Counted from the stretch's first letter, positions 678 through 9,192 are shown. The stretch is DNA of 39,783 bases from a virus (IMGVR_UViG_2706794673_000014), one strand, 5' to 3'. Numbers and translations: made by a program. The notes: generated from the sequence alone by a model not told the origin.

Positions 678-1415
678 TCATTCACTCTCTTTCAAACCAG
701 TTTTAACTGTTTGTGGTTTTGGGTAAGGCTGGACTTTGAATAGCTTTGTGTTAAGGCGTTTTCTGGCTCTCTTGTCCAGAAACCGGATGTAACGAAACTG
801 ACGGAATTTATGAACACTGGCTCTGTCGATATTAGCCCGCAGATGTTCACCTCGCTGTCCTCCTCGTTTGATTGCATTCTTGCAAATCTCGTGATACCAC
901 TCGCCATCAAGTTCATAGAATGTTGTTTCATGACTGCCTACATAATCAAAATTGCTTGCCTGGTACACGACACCAAGACAGCCACAACGCTCATCTGCAA
1001 ACGACTGAACCCACTGCACCTGCGGATAAAGTTGTCTGATTAGTTTGAGCGCGTAACTGATTGCCCTTGATTCGGAGTTTCTCGGCATACAGTCATGCAG
1101 CCATAACCGGTTAAGCTCCATATATTCGCGGTTCTGCGTGCCAGTTACGACGCGTGCACCATTGTTTGGATTAAGGGCATAACCCCATTGCATTACGCCA
1201 ACCAGCTCCCGTTCTGAAAATATGCCCAGATGAAGGTAGGAATTATTTACGAAACGATGGCTGTAATGTTTATTGACGACGACCAGCCGGGCCAGCCAGC
1301 AACTTATTGTCTCAACCCGTAACTCACGGGAGCCATAACCGACGATATTGTCGTTATAGTGAATAAGTTCAGGCGTGCTGATGATACGGGATGTAACTTG
1401 CTTTCTGTTCCCCAC
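678..1415 (-). CDS. mom: Mom-like DNA modification protein; start uncertain (GTG at 1415 with AAGGA 9 nt upstream proposed; the ORF track extends to 1610)
   Basis: Terminal gene next to attR-like end, overlapped by com 3' end, GATC cluster upstream, ~245 aa; identity inferred from context, not sequence recall. Confidence 0.55.
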
Positions 1416-1569
1416 GACAGGATTTCCTTGTGTATGTGGGGTGCTCTGTGGCGCTCTGAGATGTGATTTGATTGAGGGTTTTACAGCGCGGACATTTAAC
1501 TTCCAGATAACTGAAGCTGGCTCGTGCCAGTAGCTTGTTACAATGTCGGCACCGTATGTTTCGATACAT
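1369..1569 (-). CDS. com: Com zinc-finger translational activator of mom
   Basis: [14 protein letters not shown]...EVKCPRCK...EHPT matches recalled Mu Com (IRCKNCNKLL...EIRCPRCK...EHPT); ATG at 1567-1569 preceded by AGGAGG; stop overlaps proposed mom start region. Confidence 0.8.
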
Positions 1570-1616
1570 GGCCGCATAACCTCCTGCTTTGTTGTTGATA
1601 TCTTTATCACTCAATC

Positions 1617-1702
1617 GATCGACAAAAACGATCGATTTGATTTATTTAATTGATACAACAAATAACACGAAATGTCATTAGCGAAAATTTATGAGTTTGA
1701 TC
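1617..1702. promoter_or_regulatory. GATC cluster (1617-1620, 1630-1633, 1699-1702) and 8-bp inverted repeat ATCGATCG/CGATCGAT upstream of com-mom
   Basis: Read directly; Mu mom promoter is known to be controlled through Dam methylation of three upstream GATC sites (OxyR binding). Confidence 0.45.
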
Positions 1703-1825
1703 ACTAATTTTAAACGGTGCTGTAACGCATAAGTGCTGAATGATTGTACATTTGAATACCGCAAAGCAAACAAATCAACTAATTTATAGAAGTCAATTGG
1801 TTAATTGCCAGCGTAAGAGGCTGCT

Positions 1826-2119
1826 ATGGACAATCATGTAACGACGAGAAATCGAAAAATGATTGAAAATGCGGAAATCTATAATGATTATTTTTCCGAT
1901 TATTCAGATGCCTGCAAATACAGTTCGAGTGCGGGAGAGTTCATATGCTTCAACTTTTTTATTAAATCTTATGTTTTTCCTCCACAGCAAGAAGATGGAG
2001 GTGTGCCACCTCCTGAAATCACTTTGCACCGTATAGCCTCCGTCTCAATGATGGAGCAACAGGCTAATGAGCTGTATAGCATTCTGGGAACGATTCTACA
2101 AAAGCGTGAATCGGACTAA
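1826..2119 (+). CDS. Hypothetical protein, 97 aa, AT-rich, divergent from com-mom
   Basis: ATG at 1826 with AAGAGG 5 nt upstream; local GC far below the phage average; no recognisable motif. Confidence 0.5.
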   Translation: MDNHVTTRNRKMIENAEIYNDYFSDYSDACKYSSSAGEFICFNFFIKSYVFPPQQEDGGVPPPEITLHRIASVSMMEQQANELYSILGTILQKRESD

Positions 2120-2286
2120 TGATACCGGTTCATTTGCCTGCCCGGATGGGGAAGCAGGATTGACTGCTCCATAAGCAGCTATATTTCTGAATACGAAATA
2201 CTATCCAGCGATTACATATGGCTGGATAGCGGCAAAGATGTTTTCATTAGTGTCAAACCGGCAGAGGACACCACCGGTTTGTATTG

Positions 2287-2541
2287 TTACATCATGGTAC
2301 TGTCAGTTCCGGGCTGAGCCGGGTCTGGTTGCTCTGGCTGCGCGTCGGTTTTCGGCTCATTATCAGCATCACTGGCCGCAACTGCTGGCCCAATAAGTTT
2401 TGCCAGCACTTCATCAACGTAAGTGTCGATTTGTGCCTCAAAATCCTTGCGGACCTGCGCTTTCAGCAACTTATTTACTTCACCGGAATACAGTGCCTGT
2501 TTTACCAGGTCTTCAGTGACGGTGCCTTTAATTTCTGGCAT
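2287..2541 (-). CDS. Hypothetical acidic protein, 84 aa
   Basis: ATG at 2539-2541 with AAGGAGG 6 nt upstream; Asp/Glu/Pro-rich C-terminus. Confidence 0.6.
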   Translation of the reverse strand: MPEIKGTVTEDLVKQALYSGEVNKLLKAQVRKDFEAQIDTYVDEVLAKLIGPAVAASDADNEPKTDAQPEQPDPAQPGTDSTMM

Positions 2542-2576
2542 GTATATCCTCCTTATGCGGGAATAAAGCCCTGCAA

Positions 2577-2759
2577 TCAGGGCTGGGTCGGGTCTTTTGG
2601 GAGCGGAGTTACCTGCGCTGTTTTACTGAGTTTTTCAGCTGCTGCGTCCTCAATTTTGCGGCGAACATAATTTCTGATGGCCTTATAACCACCACTCACC
2701 AGATATAACGCACATACTGCCGTGCAGAAATACAATAAAATAAGCTGTAAAAATGTCAT
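2577..2759 (-). CDS. Small membrane protein, 60 aa, one predicted transmembrane helix
   Basis: ATG at 2757-2759 with GGGAGG upstream; hydrophobic N-terminus FLQLILLYFCTAVCALYLV followed by a basic stretch. Confidence 0.6.
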   Translation of the reverse strand: MTFLQLILLYFCTAVCALYLVSGGYKAIRNYVRRKIEDAAAEKLSKTAQVTPLPKDPTQP

Positions 2760-2855
2760 TATCCCTCCCAATTATTGACATGGTGTTGACACCGGTAATA
2801 TCTGTTAGGTAAAAAGGTGCACTGCATTTTTTGCTTTGGATATAACGATCTTTTT

Positions 2856-2897
2856 GCCGCCGGTTTCTTGTTTTCCCTTACCGGCGGCATTTTTTTA
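2856..2897 (+). terminator. GC-rich hairpin (GCCGCCGGT ... ACCGGCGGC) followed by T-run ATTTTTTTA; intrinsic-terminator-like on the plus strand
   Basis: 9-bp perfect stem, 15-nt loop, T-run 2889-2897; on the minus strand the hairpin is followed by A, so it is plus-strand specific. Confidence 0.45.
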
Positions 2898-2903
2898 TCC
2901 TGC

Positions 2904-4958
2904 TTACGCGTTATTCACTTCCACCACGATACTGTCAATCAGTACCGGGTAAGTCGCATTTTTAGTGATATCGGTCACGCGCAACTTGTCTGCCGTAAAC
3001 GTGCCGACCGGAGACTGCGACAGCATGAATGGTGTCCCGTCCTTACCATCAATGACCGGCGTCACCTCAATACTGTTGTTACCGGCAAAACGGAAGCCCA
3101 GCGTATGCCATTCGTTATTAAATGCGCCGAATGACCCCAGCTTCGTGTTCTGCGCCGTGTTTCCTTTGTGATACATCACGTTAAGGTCTGTGGCATCGCT
3201 CTGTACGTAGAACGATGCCAGCAGGTTATGACCGGCATTTCCTTCCAGAGTAACCCCTTGCGGCAGGGCAGAAACCGGCCAGTACAGCGCCAGTGCGTAC
3301 TGATTAGCCGTAAGCGCGCCATCGAGTTTAAAACGACAACTGACAAGACCACCTTTACCCAGCAGGTCCGCACCATTACCAGCATCATGCTCAAGGTACC
3401 AGGGGGCTCTTCCTGTTTCCTTGGTCAGTTTCATTGCCTTACCCCCGCTGGCTCCGGCATCATCCACGATTTGAGCCTTGCCACCTCCGGCAGCCCAACC
3501 CTGTGGTGTCAACCGTCCTTCAGACTCAGATGCCCGGTAAGCAAATAGCGTACTCATCGTCGTGGTGTCTGCGGGTGGCGTGGACGGTTTTGATGGTGTA
3601 TCAGGTGACGGCTTCTCATCCGGTGGTGTCACGGTCTGCCCACGCATCAGTTCAGCCGTGCGCCCTGCATGGAGCATAATAGCTGAGGCCAGACGGTCTG
3701 AAATGACGCCCCTGCGTGCCCATGAGCTGAAATGGCTGTCACGCTGTGTCGAAACAAAACTGCCCTGGGTTCGGGATGCTGCACCGTAATACCCGACAGC
3801 CACAATATCCGGGTCTTCCGCCGGAGCATTCGTTGGCGTGCTCTGTCCATTCTCATCCGTCAGGAACGGTACAAAGAAAATTTTCTGTGCTTCCTTGCCT
3901 TTGTAGCCACCGTATACTGCCTCATATTTATCGGTGCCAGCGTTTTTCCAGTAATACGTGGTATCACCGCAAATCCACGGCACCGTGGTGGCATTTCCAC
4001 TCACGCACTGCGCAGCAAGCGGAGCCAGGTCAGTTCTGAACTGCTGAACCATGGCCGTGAATAAACTATTATGCTGCTGGCTTCCTGAGGCAAGGTCTGC
4101 CTCTCCCTGCATCCAGACCACAGCCAGAAGTTTGTTTTTCGGGTTTTTCGCCAGCGCGACTTTGGTGCGGCTTACCAGGTCCTGATACAGAGGTTTACCG
4201 GCCCCCCAGCGTGAAGAATCAGCGGAAGCACCGCTGGCCTCACTGAATGAGCCGTCGGCTCCAGTGGTGAATGCTGACCCGCCACGACAACAGGGCACCA
4301 GAAGTATCCCGGCATTCTGTGGGATATAGGGAAGCAGTTTTTTGGCAATATGCAACCCCTGACCGACAGTCCCGTACTGGCCTTTTGCCAGATCAGCTTT
4401 CGGGTGGTTTATCCCGCTCATATCCTGAACATCATGCAGGCAGTGGTCTGCCGGAATGATGTCGTTGTATGTACACGACGTACCGTTGGGCGTTACCGTA
4501 CTGCGGCGTGCCAGTTGCTTAATGCGTGGGTCCGGGCGGTCAAACGAATCCGGTAACGGCAGCCCCTCGCCGTAGGCCATGCCATTTGACTGACCCGCGA
4601 GAATGACAACAAAGTAATATTCCGGCTCTGAACTGCTGCCATTCGTGCTACCGGAAGGCCCGGCGTTATCCGGTGCATTCCAGTCGGAGGGCGTGAGCGT
4701 TCCGGCCACGTCAGATGTGATTGGAATGATGCCAGTCACGCCTGAACTGGTGATTTCTGCACTGGGATTACCGGATACCGGCATTACCCATAATGGCTCT
4801 TTCGTGCTGAAGCGGATCACGCAGTCTGCGAAGGTGATCCCCCCTTTATTACCCGAAGGGCGGAAAGGGCTTTCAATAAATGCCACCGTGCCACCGGCAA
4901 CCTTGACTGAAAACTCTCCGGGCATGGCGGAGAGCATTTTCCACTTGGAGTCTGACAT
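2904..4958 (-). CDS. SGNH-hydrolase sialate O-acetylesterase-like protein (NanS/NanS-p-like), 684 aa, with Pro/Thr linker and C-terminal putative carbohydrate-binding domain
   Basis: Motif YYFVVILAGQSNGMAYGEGLPLPD and downstream blocks (NDIIPADHCLHDVQDMSG, LLVPCCRGGSAFT, HFSSWARRG) match recalled E. coli NanS (YjhS); linker TPPDEKPSPDTPSKPSTPP. Confidence 0.75.
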   Translation of the reverse strand: MSDSKWKMLSAMPGEFSVKVAGGTVAFIESPFRPSGNKGGITFADCVIRFSTKEPLWVMPVSGNPSAEITSSGVTGIIPITSDVAGTLTPSDWNAPDNAGPSGSTNGSSSEPEYYFVVILAGQSNGMAYGEGLPLPDSFDRPDPRIKQLARRSTVTPNGTSCTYNDIIPADHCLHDVQDMSGINHPKADLAKGQYGTVGQGLHIAKKLLPYIPQNAGILLVPCCRGGSAFTTGADGSFSEASGASADSSRWGAGKPLYQDLVSRTKVALAKNPKNKLLAVVWMQGEADLASGSQQHNSLFTAMVQQFRTDLAPLAAQCVSGNATTVPWICGDTTYYWKNAGTDKYEAVYGGYKGKEAQKIFFVPFLTDENGQSTPTNAPAEDPDIVAVGYYGAASRTQGSFVSTQRDSHFSSWARRGVISDRLASAIMLHAGRTAELMRGQTVTPPDEKPSPDTPSKPSTPPADTTTMSTLFAYRASESEGRLTPQGWAAGGGKAQIVDDAGASGGKAMKLTKETGRAPWYLEHDAGNGADLLGKGGLVSCRFKLDGALTANQYALALYWPVSALPQGVTLEGNAGHNLLASFYVQSDATDLNVMYHKGNTAQNTKLGSFGAFNNEWHTLGFRFAGNNSIEVTPVIDGKDGTPFMLSQSPVGTFTADKLRVTDITKNATYPVLIDSIVVEVNNA

Positions 4959-5030
4959 CGTCTTTTCTGCCTGTTTCTGAATTAAACAGAGTCAGAATAG
5001 CGACCGCTGAAAAATATGTGTTTTGCGGAA

Positions 5031-5063
5031 ATTCAAAAAAGCGTCACGGTACTTTTGGTGACG
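5031..5063 (-). terminator. Putative intrinsic terminator just after gin (6-bp GC-rich stem, then TTTTTT on the minus strand)
   Basis: Stem CGTCAC/GTGACG at 5042-5047 and 5058-5063 overlapping gin stop; plus-strand A-run 5035-5040. Confidence 0.45.
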
Positions 5064-5616
5064 GAGCTGGTGAGGCAGGAAAATAACGATAAAGGGTGGA
5101 AAGGCCAATATCAAATATCAGTGCGATTTGTTTACGGGACTCGCCATTAGCCAGCAAACGGGCGATTTGCTCCCGCTCTTTCTCTGTCAGTTTCTGAGGT
5201 CTGCCGCCATGACGCCCCTGAGCACGGGCAGCAGCAAGACCCGCGCGTGTACGTTCAATAATGAGTTCCCGCTCCATTTCCGCCAGCGCGCCCATTATAT
5301 GGAAAAAGAAACGTCCCATGGGAGTGGATGTATCAATATTGTCCGTAATGCTGCGGAAGTTAACGCCGCGTTGCCGGAGTTCTTCTGTTAAAAGGACAAG
5401 GTGCTGCATACTGCGTCCAAGGCGATCCAGTTTCCAGACCAGCAGGGTATCCCCTGGCCGGAGTCGCTTTAATGCGCGTTTAAGTCCGGGACGCTCCCTT
5501 GTCTTACCGCTTATTCTGTCTTCGAAAAACAGCTCACATCCTGCACATTCCAGCGCATTTCTTTGTAGCGCCGTATTCTGGTCATTTGTTGACACCCTGA
5601 TATACCCAATCAGCAT
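5044..5616 (-). CDS. gin: Gin/Hin/Pin-family serine DNA invertase
   Basis: MLIGYIRVSTNDQ...LLVWKLDRLGRSMQHL...GRFFFHIMGALAEMERELIIERT closely matches recalled Mu Gin; sits beside the invertible segment. Confidence 0.93.
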   Translation of the reverse strand: MLIGYIRVSTNDQNTALQRNALECAGCELFFEDRISGKTRERPGLKRALKRLRPGDTLLVWKLDRLGRSMQHLVLLTEELRQRGVNFRSITDNIDTSTPMGRFFFHIMGALAEMERELIIERTRAGLAAARAQGRHGGRPQKLTEKEREQIARLLANGESRKQIALIFDIGLSTLYRYFPASPAPSPKVP

Positions 5617-5681
5617 ACGATTTCCTTATTATAAAAAGCCGGAATTGTCGCATGAGGAATAAAACAGAGTTAATCCTGGCT

Positions 5682-5707
5682 TTCCTGAAAACCTCGGTTT
5701 ACGGGAA
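5682..5707. repeat. gix-like recombination site 1 (TTCCTGAAAACC-TC-GGTTTACGGGAA), core 5694-5695
   Basis: 26-bp imperfect palindrome with 12-bp half-sites and 2-bp core; resembles recalled Mu gix/hix sites. Confidence 0.75.
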
Positions 5708-6055
5708 ACGGTAAACAGGGCGGCGAATGCTCTGCCATCGGACGGCACCGCCGTTGCCGCGAATAGACTCGCCACCCCAAGAAATATTAATGGGGTTCCC
5801 TTTGACGGGACGCAGGACATAAACATCACTTCTGGTATAACACAGCAGGATGCGGATTCCCGATATATCCAGGATATCAGGCTGGGAGCAGAGAACAGGC
5901 AGGTAATGTACGGTGGGGCATATTACTCTGCGTACGGTAATGTTATGGCAGGCCTGCAGATTGACAGTAAAGTTGATGCTTCAAACGATTTTATAGCATT
6001 CAGACCCCTGCAAAAATTAGTCGGAGGTACATGGATTACGGTATCTCAGTTATAA
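5696..6055 (+). CDS. Alternative tail-fibre C-terminal cassette (Sv'-like), start-less; would fuse in frame to the constant part of S after inversion
   Basis: Open frame from crossover to stop 6053-6055 encoding [25 protein letters not shown]...FRPLQKLVGGTWITVSQL; first 23 aa identical to the corresponding part of S; no start codon. Confidence 0.65.
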   Translation, partial: GLRETVNRAANALPSDGTAVAANRLATPRNINGVPFDGTQDINITSGITQQDADSRYIQDIRLGAENRQVMYGGAYYSAYGNVMAGLQIDSKVDASNDFIAFRPLQKLVGGTWITVSQL

Positions 6056-6106
6056 ATAGTCAGTAAATAATATATTTTAAAACAGATTTATTTCCAGGAG
6101 GATTTT

Positions 6107-6628
6107 ATGGAACTAAAAAATATAACCCGTTATTATCCTGAAAATATGCCATATGGTAATAATGTTCAGTATTTCCAGAGTGAAGATGGTAAGGATTTCT
6201 ACGAATCCCTGCCATTATTCACCAAAAAATATAAACTTTGCATAACACCTGACAGCGGCGTTATCTGCTCAATATCACAGGACGCCTCGGCGCTGTATCC
6301 TGCGGGGTTTTCTGTGGTTGAGGTCGATGAACTCCCTGAAGGCACGGATATTTCAGGAAACTGGAAGTTTGATAATGGCATAATCTCCCGTATTCCGGTT
6401 AACTACGCAAGAAAACTGGAAGCAATGCGCCAGTCATATCTTAATCAGGCATATGAAAAAATTAATGACTGGAGAACGGAGCTACAACTGGGCACCATCA
6501 GCGATGAAGACAGAGCAGCACTTACCCAATGGATGGCATACATCAGTCAGGTGAAGAAAATGGAACTACCCGCCATTAAAACAGAAGCTGAATTTAACGC
6601 CATTAAATGGCCTGAGCAGCCACAGTAA
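6107..6628 (+). CDS. Tail fibre assembly protein (Tfa/U-like), 173 aa
   Basis: ATG with AGGAGG 6 nt upstream; Tfa-like C-terminus ...NAIKWPEQPQ; follows the Sv' cassette; AT-rich. Confidence 0.8.
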   Translation: MELKNITRYYPENMPYGNNVQYFQSEDGKDFYESLPLFTKKYKLCITPDSGVICSISQDASALYPAGFSVVEVDELPEGTDISGNWKFDNGIISRIPVNYARKLEAMRQSYLNQAYEKINDWRTELQLGTISDEDRAALTQWMAYISQVKKMELPAIKTEAEFNAIKWPEQPQ

Positions 6629-6659
6629 TAAAGAAGGCCGGAAGGCCTTCTGAATATCA

Positions 6660-7541
6660 TTATATACTTGCAGCCGTCACCCATGCTCCATTTAACAGAT
6701 ACTGCAACGGCCGGTAATACACGCCGCCGACGTTATCTGCCGTATTCTTACCGACATCCTGTACTTTAATTCCGGTAAGAACATTGCCGCCCCCCAGATT
6801 CAGATCCCAGCTTTCCCATGTTCCGGGCATATGTGCGGTCACCGACCCCAGTCTTATGGCGGTTACTGTTCCTGATGAGATAGTGATATCCTGCGTCCCG
6901 TCAAAGGGAACACCATTAATTGTGTGGGCATTTGCCAGCCTGTTCGCGGCAACGGCGGTGCCGTCCGATGGCAGGGCATTCGCCGCCCTGTTTACCGTTT
7001 CCCGTAAACCGACGTTATCGATAAAAGCCCCTTTATCCGGAATGTCTGCGCCGTTCTGCTCCCTGCGCAGGTAACGGTTATCACCTTCGCTTTTGCTGTA
7101 AACATCCAGATTATTACGGGCGGTTCCCTTATTCTCCAGGTCGGCGAGATTCTGATCCTTCGCCAGGGCATTAACGTCAGCGGGACCAAGACTGTTTTTT
7201 GTGGCAAGCGTCCCCAGACCAAGATAACCACGGGCCAGACGCTGGGCCTCCGCACCGGCATCAGCAATTTCTTTCAGGTTATTTTTCCGGGAAAAGGCAT
7301 TCGCAGCGATAATGGCTTTAATGGACAGCGTAAGCTGGTTTAACTGCGCCTTATCCGGCTGAATACTGGCTTCAGCCAGAATATTCAGCAGTTCGGCCTG
7401 GAGAATATTCAGCCAGTCCTGACCAATCCAGCTGATACCTTTTTGTCCGTCACCTTCGGTAAACCAGGTGGTGGTATTACTCTGCGCCGGTGCCAGCGCA
7501 GGCATATTCGCCACGCCGGAATTATTATCAACATGAAACAT
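6660..7541 (-). CDS. Tail fibre protein (Mu S-like); C-terminal ~75 aa encoded inside the invertible segment
   Basis: N-terminus [30 protein letters not shown] matches recalled Mu S; reading frame passes through gix site 2. Confidence 0.85.
6999..7024. repeat. gix-like recombination site 2 (TTCCCGTAAACC-GA-CGTTATCGATAA), core 7011-7012, inside the S gene
   Basis: Inverted relative to site 1; outer half-site TTATCGATAACG resembles recalled Mu gixL TTATCCAAAACC. Confidence 0.75.
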
Positions 7542-8101: not shown

Positions 8102-9192
8102 GTGATTTCTCCTACCGTCAGCAGCTCACTGTCTCCCGCCTGAACTGACGTCAGCGGACTGCGCACTTCAAAATCCTCCAGATTTTTCACCCCTGCCACC
8201 GCCCGCCAGAAAGACGACGGCAGAACCAGACCGCCGGGCCGGGATTCGTTATACAACAGGTCGGTCAGCGCCTGTTTTACGGCCGCCTGATTCTCCGGTG
8301 TTTTCGGGATGATCCTGATGCTGAAGGGCACCGGCTTATTGGTCAGTTTAAACACGGTCACCGTCGGCCCCAGAGGCTGTCCGACAGGCTGGCCGGTCGC
8401 CGGATCATCATGACTGCGGATATAATCCGCCACCCGCTGAACATCACCGTCACCGGGGAAAATATCCGGGTTATTATCCTGAACAAACGTTACCCCCACG
8501 CTGCCCGCCTGCGGCCATTCCGGGCGGCACCATGCCCGCGTCACGCCCGGCACTTCACGCGCCCAGCGTTCAAAATCATACTGCGTGCCGNNNNNNNNNN
8601 NNNNNNNNNNNNNNNNNNNNNNNNNNNNNNNNNNNNNNNNNNNNNNNNNNNNNNNNNNNNNNNNNNNNNNNNNNNNNNNNNNNNNNNNNNNNNNNNNNNN
8701 NNNNNNNNNNNNNNNNNNNNNNNNNNNNNNNNNNNNNNNNNNNNNNNNNNNNNNNNNNNNNNNNNNNNNNNNNNNNNNNNNNNNNNNNNNNNNNNNNNNN
8801 NNNNNNNNNNNNNNNNNNNNNNNNNNNNNNNNNNNNNNNNNNNNNNNNTAAACCACGCCATCACTTCGCTGGAGAAGCACACCTTCCTTGATCCCCGCAT
8901 CCGTGGTCAGCATCAGCTGAACCGGCCCGTCCCCCCGAGAGGCAGGCTTACGCATGACGCCCCAGAATGCACAGTGTTTCAGCAGTTCGGCTTCATCGGC
9001 TTCGGTCGGGATGATCTGACGCGCAATCCAGGCCAGATGCTCATGCTCCTGAGCAGATAACCCTGCCTGAGCGTAAGCAATGGCATTCAGGGTGGTTTCA
9101 TTCACACCCGGCTGCGAGCCGGGCAGGCGCTGGCTGATATCCTGCTGTGTCTGCGTGATTAACTGTGCCAGCGGTAAAGGCTGATAAGGCAT
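8092..9192 (-). CDS. Baseplate J-like protein (Mu gp47-like); interrupted by N-run 8591-8848
   Basis: Size and position in baseplate cluster; both flanks of the gap read as one frame. Confidence 0.7.
   Translation of the reverse strand: MPYQPLPLAQLITQTQQDISQRLPGSQPGVNETTLNAIAYAQAGLSAQEHEHLAWIARQIIPTEADEAELLKHCAFWGVMRKPASRGDGPVQLMLTTDAGIKEGVLLQRSDGVVXXXXXXXXXXXXXXXXXXXXXXXXXXXXXXXXXXXXXXXXXXXXXXXXXXXXXXXXXXXXXXXXXXXXXXXXXXXXXXXXXXXXXXXGTQYDFERWAREVPGVTRAWCRPEWPQAGSVGVTFVQDNNPDIFPGDGDVQRVADYIRSHDDPATGQPVGQPLGPTVTVFKLTNKPVPFSIRIIPKTPENQAAVKQALTDLLYNESRPGGLVLPSSFWRAVAGVKNLEDFEVRSPLTSVQAGDSELLTVGEITWL
8591..8848. other. Run of N (unsequenced or masked)
   Basis: Read directly. Confidence 1.

Follow-up and report, generated by a model that had tools for sequence, protein, structure and literature searches.

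The locus described here is an interval of about 3.4 kb near the right-hand end of a Mu-like prophage on the viral sequence IMGVR_UViG_2706794673_000014, a stretch of 39,783 nucleotides that was analysed over its whole length (hereafter the window). The interval lies between gin, which encodes the DNA invertase, and the com-mom region, and it holds four genes: in leftward order, one for an esterase of 684 amino acids (aa) and two for small proteins of the families DUF1378 (60 aa) and DUF826 (84 aa), followed by a divergent open reading frame (ORF) of 97 aa. All four had been called from the sequence alone in an earlier note on this DNA, and each was recovered at the same position.

The cassette between gin and com-mom

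The window is a near-complete Mu-like prophage on the minus strand, recognised through Pfam matches to MuA, MuB, a Mu-type portal, gpT, a tape-measure protein, gpP, and gp48; with its transposition, portal, head, and baseplate proteins it combines gin, com, and mom, and so has the gene content of a transposable Mu-like prophage. Only 94 bp separate gin from com in Mu (NC_000929), whereas the distance in the window is about 3.4 kb (1680-5043), in line with the earlier observation that gin nearly abuts the mom region in Mu. That this DNA is truly interposed follows from its two edges, since gin (5044..5616, minus strand; Pfam Resolvase and HTH_7), the left boundary, stops at 5044, and the alignment picks up again, with the GATC-rich control region of mom in Mu and with other Mu-like prophages, only at about 1660-1680. 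The GATC-rich element that stands just after gin in Mu aligns with about 1611-1660 of the window. Relative to Mu, D108, and SfMu, the interposed DNA is accessory. Flanking repeats that would mark an insertion event were searched for, and none was found.

The esterase gene occupies 2904-4958 on the minus strand and matches the Pfam models SASA and DUF6645; these hits, along with those to NanS and NanS-p described below, uphold the earlier designation of the product as an esterase. Alignment and domain models divide the protein into an N-terminal domain specific to the Mu lineage (residues 1-93; 4680..4958), a linker rich in Ser, Gly, and Pro (residues 94-111; 4626..4679), an SGNH/SASA catalytic domain of the NanS type (residues 112-432; 3663..4625; PF03629), a second linker rich in Pro, Thr, and Ser whose length varies between alleles (residues 433-468; 3555..3662), and a lectin-like jelly-roll domain, DUF6645 (residues 469-684 and the stop codon; 2904..3554; PF20350, E 7e-68). 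When compared with solved structures, residues 110-428 match Escherichia coli NanS (3PT5) with an E value of 1.8e-117 and 58% identity over 315 residues, and residues 469-683 align with the NanS-p C-terminal domain (6YP6) with an E value of 7e-98 and 69% identity. The protein is also 65% identical, over 86% of its length, to L0105 of phage 933W, and a tblastn search with it returned 349 phage records, nearly all of them from Shiga toxin (Stx)-converting or other lambdoid phages. Ser124 of the block I motif GQSN and His409 of block V, in the SHFS motif, align with the corresponding residues of NanS and are invariant in alignments of 13 and 18 homologues. On these matches, the 684-aa protein is assigned as a NanS-p-type sialate O-acetylesterase: residues 110-683 are homologous to enzymes with demonstrated 9-O-acetyl-N-acetylneuraminate esterase activity, and the catalytic Ser and His are both intact. 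The ratio of nonsynonymous to synonymous substitutions per site (dN/dS) is 0.10-0.14 for the whole gene and about 0.1 for the catalytic and C-terminal domains, and it rises to 0.8 in the linker of residues 94-111 when the window is compared with its relative CI5.

The part of the protein that departs from known NanS-p enzymes is its N-terminus. Lambdoid NanS-p proteins begin with DUF1737 (PF08410), to which residues 1-93 of the window esterase are unrelated in alignment; these residues match no model in Pfam, PHROG, or NCBIfam, PF08410 included. In a large protein collection the homologues fall into two classes, one of 678-691 aa that covers 98-100% of the query and lacks PF08410, and one of about 640-655 aa that carries PF08410 and matches only residues ~95-684, at up to 89-91% identity. 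Among the sequences searched, the window-type N-domain was seen only in esterases of Mu-like prophages. It occurs in E. coli as just two types, one 97-100% and the other about 62% identical to that of the window, while the identity of the whole esterase to the window protein ranges from 53% to 100% across Mu-like loci. When 1.8 billion representatives were searched exhaustively with HMMER, a single true distant relative emerged beyond E. coli and Shigella, in Salmonella P0127; the other two hits were judged spurious, being low-complexity or repeat proteins. A word-indexed search with the N-domain gave only fragments, and a scan of one genome per species found nothing. A comparison with all ORFs of the window likewise detected no similarity, so the N-domain was not copied from a domain of a tail-fibre or head protein.

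The predicted model of the N-domain is a generic small beta barrel, cupin-like, with no significant match to any solved or predicted phage structure; a full-length AlphaFold model built with 18 close homologues reached a predicted local distance difference test score (pLDDT) of 36 and was not used. The replacement of DUF1737 by what is modelled as a 93-residue beta-barrel domain of no family is new. Between the window and CI5 this domain has a dS of 0.40, a dN of 0.014, and a dN/dS of 0.04, the lowest of any part of the esterase, a substitution pattern that indicates strong purifying selection. It is this pattern, and not the retention of the domain, that speaks for selection, because lambdoid alleles offer no homologous sequence by which the N-domain could be replaced.

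The two small genes lie downstream on the same strand. The DUF1378 gene (2577..2759, minus strand; PF07125, E 1e-31; phrog_494) encodes a protein with one N-terminal transmembrane helix followed by a basic tail (isoelectric point 9.3), and the DUF826 gene (2287..2541, minus strand; PF05696, E 6e-16; phrog_311) an acidic protein (isoelectric point 4.2) with a conserved C-terminus ending in MM. The strong ribosome-binding sites previously remarked on are indeed present, as GGGAGGG before the 60-aa gene and AAGGAGG before the 84-aa gene. In the literature searched, only two papers name these families, and no function is known for either of them. The genes are nonetheless constrained in sequence, at dN/dS values of 0.14-0.32 for DUF1378 and 0.08-0.22 for DUF826.

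The same three genes recur in lambdoid phages. In 933W the order is esterase, an unannotated 59-aa DUF1378 ORF, L0106 (a DUF826 protein), and holin S, and a non-Stx lambdoid prophage (locus L044) repeats the order esterase-DUF1378-DUF826. DUF1378 followed by DUF826 thus stands directly downstream of the esterase, on the same strand, in the window, 933W, L044, and the Mu-like loci; the distance from the esterase to DUF1378 is about 150 bp in 933W and in LC645424 and PA28, the latter two having coordinates listed for both genes. DUF1378 was found in 309 phage records, as against 349 with the esterase, and in P2-like phages that carry the esterase the records stop inside or next to that gene. Given the shared order in lambdoid phages, the leftward three genes of the interval constitute a nanS-p/DUF1378/DUF826 cassette. 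At the right-hand end of Mu-like prophages, no lysis gene stands beside this cassette. As DUF1378 and DUF826 have moved with the esterase to a position far from the Mu lysis genes, they are probably partners of the esterase rather than of lysis genes.

Distribution and exchange of the cassette

A com-mom segment of the window type was found in 233 of 5426 complete E. coli genomes, and a separate search with the esterase N-terminus, for which the two E. coli variants served as queries, also returned 233 of the 5426 genomes (235 records); two plasmid locations were among the matches in both searches. A 3.8-kb query was covered to at least 80% in only 27 of the 5426, a count that is low because the alleles diverge and not because the cassette is absent. 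O157:H7 F7508 and strain E2865, for example, carry in succession the tail fibre, gin, an esterase of 679 aa, DUF1378, DUF826, a divergent 154-aa ORF, com, and mom, and this order recurs in LC727881, in a Mu-like phage that has inserted into an Stx2c phage. It also holds for all 34 IMG/VR contigs recovered with the N-domain, where they are long enough and with the exception of two recombinants (L009 and L014, below). In all related loci that span the interval, the arrangement, apart from these two, is gin (optional)-esterase-DUF1378-DUF826-slot-com, and no Mu-like locus examined beyond the esterase lacks either DUF1378 or DUF826. For O157, the Mu-like prophage described in the literature is Sp18 of strain Sakai (PMC2669165).

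The earlier note had treated the island as an insertion in this prophage. It is not peculiar to it; the cassette is a fixed part of the E. coli Mu-like prophage lineage and not a recent insertion. The same genes stand at the same position in related Mu-like phages, where none of them has an assigned structural role, and the small ORFs, far from lacking conservation, share in the purifying selection that acts on all four genes (dN/dS 0.08-0.36). The cassette is therefore under purifying selection and a constant component of this Mu-like lineage. Mu, D108, and SfMu were absent from the records matched by the esterase or DUF1378 queries, and a literature search found no mention of nanS-p together with Mu-like phages.

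A more distant arrangement is seen in a Mu-like prophage of Salmonella enterica, in which tail genes, the invertible segment, and gin are followed by two small ORFs and then by an esterase whose N-terminus is 30% identical to that of the window and which is truncated by the end of the contig. Of the two ORFs in the gap between gin and esterase in Salmonella (L007:9426-9910), one encodes 58 aa with a hydrophobic helix at the C-terminus, and the other, of 87 aa, has a weak match to an Xre-like helix-turn-helix. The space after gin thus gathers cargo that differs from host to host.

Comparison of alleles shows that the esterase body and its N-domain have had separate histories. Over 2631-4625, a stretch that begins inside DUF1378 and stops precisely at the linker preceding the catalytic domain, the window shares 92% nucleotide identity with a lambdoid prophage allele, a similarity that ends at 4625, whereas its identity to the O157-type Mu-like allele over the same stretch is only about 70%. 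The esterase body has accordingly been exchanged with lambdoid alleles while the N-domain stayed with the Mu-like backbone; that is, the body recombines with lambdoid alleles, and the N-terminal 93 residues are specific to Mu-like prophages. Hybrid loci tell of the same process. In one IMG/VR contig (L009:96-8236), gin and an esterase with the Mu-type N-domain (99% identical to the window) are followed by a lambdoid-type DUF1378 and then by a 127-aa DUF826, a 933W-like holin S, an endolysin, Rz, and the small terminase. In another (L014), the part that comprises DUF826, the 97-aa ORF, com, and mom is inverted and lies 6.5 kb away. The two hybrids indicate that the shared cassette recombines, or inverts, between Mu-like and lambdoid prophages.

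The variable slot and the flanking sequence

Between the cassette and the mom control region lies a hypervariable slot (1679..2257) that has no counterpart in O157-type or LC727881-type prophages; similarity to the O157-type prophages begins at 2258. In the window, the slot holds the divergent, AT-rich ORF of 97 aa (1826..2119, plus strand; 39.8% G+C), as the earlier note had described it. Its product is acidic and belongs to no known family. It was looked at for the features of a moron, an independently expressed cargo gene of a prophage with its own promoter and terminator: it is preceded by AAGAGG, a good ribosome-binding site, and followed by a hairpin, and the promoter scan did no better than shuffled sequence. 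In CI5 it is 80% identical at the nucleotide level with its frame and the start codon at 1826 kept, and the 39 substitutions between the two give a dN/dS of 0.36; it is probably a real gene. The window version of the slot occurs in 18 of the 5426 genomes. O157-type and LC727881-type prophages have in its place a divergent 154-aa ORF or the 64-aa zinc-ribbon-like C-terminal part of that ORF, and a third group has about 930 bp with ORFs of 76 and 106 aa. None of the slot and cargo ORFs of 97, 154, 64, 58, and 87 aa had a significant match in PADLOC, Pfam, PHROGs, or NCBIfam. The island had been proposed as the likeliest place for an undescribed accessory function, a view that does not hold for three of its four genes, since the nanS-p/DUF1378/DUF826 cassette is already known; if a truly undescribed function is present, it may rather lie in the slot, for which the evidence is thin.

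Right of the slot, the interposed DNA is bounded by a GATC-containing palindrome of the mom control region (1611..1640, minus strand), which aligns with the GATC cluster upstream of Mu com; an inverted repeat at 1613-1637 falls inside this control region. Beyond it lie com (1369-1569, minus strand; Pfam Zn_ribbon_Com) and mom (678-1415, minus strand; Pfam Mom), whose limits were taken from the RefSeq annotation of identical DNA, and the Mom protein is 78% identical to that of Mu. In LC727881 (L002:9420-10472) and three IMG/VR contigs (L025, L031, L036), mom is replaced by a C5 cytosine DNA methylase gene (PF00145, 350 aa), which sits directly behind com and overlaps it, where mom otherwise is. 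Only in the right-hand 1.1 kb of the island did its composition prove to differ from that of the phage backbone, as had been claimed for the whole: the esterase gene has 54.9% G+C and the backbone 55.3%, as against 34.4% for the mom control region and 46-48% for com and mom.

On the other side, the spacer between gin and the esterase gene (4959..5043, minus strand) was read directly and in a multiple alignment that comprised, besides the window, the versions of CI5, M3, the O157 type, LC727881, and Salmonella. It contains a weak hairpin with a T run directly 3' of gin, and a conserved CTGTTTAATTCAGAAACAGG element just upstream of the weak ribosome-binding site of the esterase gene. A 14-nt motif, ACTCTGTTT(A/T)ATTC, occurs upstream of the start codons of both the esterase gene (4979-4992) and gin (5657-5670), on the minus strand; with two copies only, it may be due to chance.

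The island had also been credited with terminator-like hairpins of its own. Hairpins do follow the esterase, DUF1378, and DUF826 genes, but in a consensus scan terminator-like sites were no more numerous than in shuffled sequence (nine, as against 5.7 +/- 2.3 expected). The hairpin between the esterase and DUF1378 genes (2856..2896, plus strand) has a 9-bp G+C stem (2856-2864/2880-2888) and a run of seven T, and is conserved in the lambdoid allele; it is terminator-like only in the antisense direction and might end an antisense transcript. A hairpin of the form AAACCGG-N12-CCGGTTT (2255..2280, minus strand) stands at the end of the conserved cassette. The only Rfam hit, a weak one to Esr41 that overlaps the hairpin at 2856..2896 (22 bits, as against a gathering score of 102; E 0.73), was dismissed as chance, being absent at the equivalent place in related loci.

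Several further observations concern the prophage as a whole. The gin gene is 78% identical to that of the Mu-like phage inside LC727881, and several relatives lack gin altogether (CI5, M3, and some IMG/VR contigs). The invertible tail-fibre segment (5629-7541) looks reduced, with a 293-aa fibre gene on the minus strand, and with a 49-aa alternative fibre C-terminus and a 173-aa assembly gene on the plus strand; the expressed fibre has no assembly gene after it. An apparent dip in G+C (23-29%) at 8400-9000 was dismissed as a real feature, as it is a run of N (8592-8849) inside a baseplate J/gp47-like gene. An IS66-family transposase gene fragment (1-459) adjoins the right end of the prophage (about 460-677). 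In other strains, identical island DNA lies elsewhere, at ypdB, in the xdhA region, in flagellar genes, and at garL, with up to five copies per genome, as expected of a transposing phage.

Proposed function and its alternatives

The reading that we favour, at a probability of roughly 0.6, is that the interval comprises a three-gene accessory cassette, encoding a NanS-p-type esterase, DUF1378, and DUF826, followed by a hypervariable slot that holds the 97-aa ORF. Chromosomal NanS, which belongs to the nan regulon, is periplasmic and consists of a single domain. The phage esterase, by comparison, has no signal peptide and an N-terminus that is not hydrophobic (judged by eye), and so is probably cytoplasmic until lysis, which is also the assumption for lambdoid NanS-p. 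It would be present in the cytoplasm during lytic growth and be released when the cell lyses; once outside, it would strip sialic acids derived from mucin of their 9-O-acetyl groups and thereby make N-acetylneuraminic acid (Neu5Ac) available to E. coli. The lectin-like C-terminal domain would target the enzyme to glycans, the N-domain would serve as DUF1737 does in lambdoid NanS-p, as a phage-type-specific protein contact or an oligomerisation contact, and DUF1378 and DUF826 would act as partners of the esterase. For lambdoid NanS-p alleles, esterase activity on 5-N-acetyl-9-O-acetylneuraminic acid (Neu5,9Ac2) and on O-acetylated mucin glycans has been shown biochemically (PMC8065619), and they have been described as favouring growth on Neu5,9Ac2 and as being strongly up-regulated along with late genes (PMC8065619; PMC10462455).

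Several points weigh against this account. The function ascribed to the Mu-type alleles rests on sequence comparison, with the substrate specificity assumed from 58% identity to NanS, and the lack of a signal peptide, on which the cytoplasmic location depends, was a judgement by eye. No promoter was identified, a sigma-70 scan having given fewer hits than shuffled sequence, and the C-protein site of the Mu mom promoter (Pmom) has no match in the window, so that the timing of cassette expression is a guess. The partnership of DUF1378 and DUF826 with the esterase is drawn from co-transfer, which linkage as one DNA segment may explain equally. Finally, the two counts of 233 genomes, one for the com-mom segment and one for the N-domain, need not refer to the same set.

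A different role for the esterase, which overlaps with the favoured account and which we hold to be possible though tentative, is that of a structural enzyme displayed on the virion, its N-domain docking on the Mu-like particle at the capsid hexons or in the baseplate and fibre region; the virion would then carry an activity that modifies mucus glycans, a 'receptor-destroying' activity. The suggestion draws on phage phi24B, whose NanS-p, gp84, is reported as a virion protein whose DUF1737 domain forms a hexamer on the capsid hexons and whose catalytic part is cleaved off at a later stage (2026 preprint); it is the only homologue reported in virions among related esterases. By analogy, the Mu-type N-domain is an evident candidate for an anchor specific to Mu. 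In the Mu-like esterases, DUF1737 has been swapped exactly at the linker for a domain that, among the sequences searched, was seen only in esterases of Mu-like prophages, and this domain is the most constrained part of the protein. The gene also follows the tail-fibre and invertase module, adjoins the tail-fibre genes where gin is missing, and in Salmonella comes two small ORFs after gin, and SASA domains are known from an actinophage minor tail protein and from PHROG tail families. Set against this, the N-domain has no detectable likeness to other proteins of the window and no significant structural match among phage proteins, solved or predicted, the fold of its cupin-like barrel is generic, decoration and cement proteins are absent from prototype Mu (PMC11915804), and persistence of the N-domain through recombination is trivially expected in the absence of homologous lambdoid sequence. 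Proximity to the tail-fibre module, which determines host range, might also be taken together with the lectin-like domain to suggest an enzyme whose targets are glycans of the bacterial surface (enterobacterial common antigen, capsule, or O-acetylated O-antigen) and which aids adsorption or alters the surface of the lysogen, an idea left open for NanS-p in a review of Stx phages (PMC8065619). We consider it improbable: the catalytic domain is 58% identical to chromosomal NanS, a sialate esterase, lambdoid alleles act on Neu5,9Ac2 and mucin O-glycans, a protein without a signal peptide would not reach the surface of its own lysogen unless the cell lysed, and the esterase body is exchanged with lambdoid alleles whatever the type of tail fibre.

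For the two small genes, it has to be asked whether they are lysis-accessory genes that were merely carried along with nanS-p, as might be suggested by the holin gene that comes right after them in 933W, L044, and L009 and by the small, single-pass membrane topology of DUF1378. That is unlikely, as purifying selection still acts on the two (dN/dS 0.08-0.32) in Mu-like prophages, where no lysis gene is adjacent, and both are kept in every Mu-like locus examined past the esterase. Still less can be said for the interval as a decaying hitch-hiker without function, a notion that we regard as scarcely credible. Some prophage copies are remnants, such as DLI.5a, in which gin is frameshifted too; the cassette is nevertheless found in 233 genomes, all four ORFs of the window are intact, and dN/dS stays at 0.04-0.36 between alleles whose divergence reaches 0.4-0.6 synonymous substitutions per site.

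An accessory cassette with a NanS-p-type esterase can be set beside four known systems. With lambdoid NanS-p (933W L0105/z1466; phi24B gp84, also vb_24B_21; Protein Data Bank 6YP6), the window esterase shares the SASA/SGNH domain with its Ser and His, a linker, the lectin-like DUF6645 domain, the lack of a signal peptide, and the DUF1378 and DUF826 genes that follow; unlike NanS-p, it has a 93-residue barrel in place of DUF1737 and resides not in a lambdoid phage between Q/stx and the holin gene, but in a transposable Mu-like myovirus between gin and com-mom. With NanS (YjhS; 3PT5) it shares the catalytic domain, including the GQSN Ser and SHFS His, and it differs from NanS in being phage-borne and in having additional N- and C-terminal domains. 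The right end of the prophage, in turn, resembles those of Mu, D108, and SfMu in the order and strand of gin, the GATC-rich control region, com, and the overlapping mom (Mom 76-78% identical), and is unlike that of Mu in the DNA interposed after gin and, in some relatives, in the C5 cytosine methylase that stands for mom. A further likeness is to the Mu-like prophages of O157 and other E. coli that produce Shiga toxin (STEC), which have the same backbone and the same succession of gin, esterase, DUF1378, DUF826, slot, com, and mom (seen in F7508 and E2865; Sp18 is named from its publication); in the O157 type the esterase is 66-70% identical, the N-domain is of type B (61-62% identical), and the slot holds the 154-aa ORF rather than the 97-aa ORF. 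The window esterase largely belongs to the NanS-p family and is best regarded as an architectural variant of it that is new, in a phage background that is likewise new.

So far, NanS-p has been viewed as a property of Stx and other lambdoid phages by which lysogens can feed on the sialic acid of mucin. Its enzyme body is now seen to be fixed also in a transposable Mu-like myovirus that about 4% of complete E. coli genomes carry, many of them O157 and other STEC. The presence of DUF1378 and DUF826 beside the esterase, away from lysis genes, makes the two families candidate esterase partners, and a recombining cassette shared at high similarity by Mu-like and lambdoid prophages is relevant to prophage-mediated genome rearrangement in STEC. 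By analogy with phi24B, one might go further and regard NanS-p-type esterases as modular, virion-displayed enzymes with a common catalytic and lectin body, freely recombined among unrelated phage families, to which each family supplies its own N-terminal anchor, a generalisation that we offer as speculative and rather doubtful. DUF1737 would in that case be the capsid anchor of lambdoid phages and podoviruses, the 93-residue barrel that of Mu-like myoviruses, with DUF1378 and DUF826 as helpers dedicated to loading or processing of the enzyme, an allocation of roles that is no less conjectural. The differing, constrained N-terminus makes for a simple comparative test of such a phage-specific anchor. 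If the modular view were true, gut coliphages of different architecture would all carry a sialate-de-O-acetylating activity, akin to a receptor-destroying one, on the particle, much like the haemagglutinin-esterases of animal viruses.

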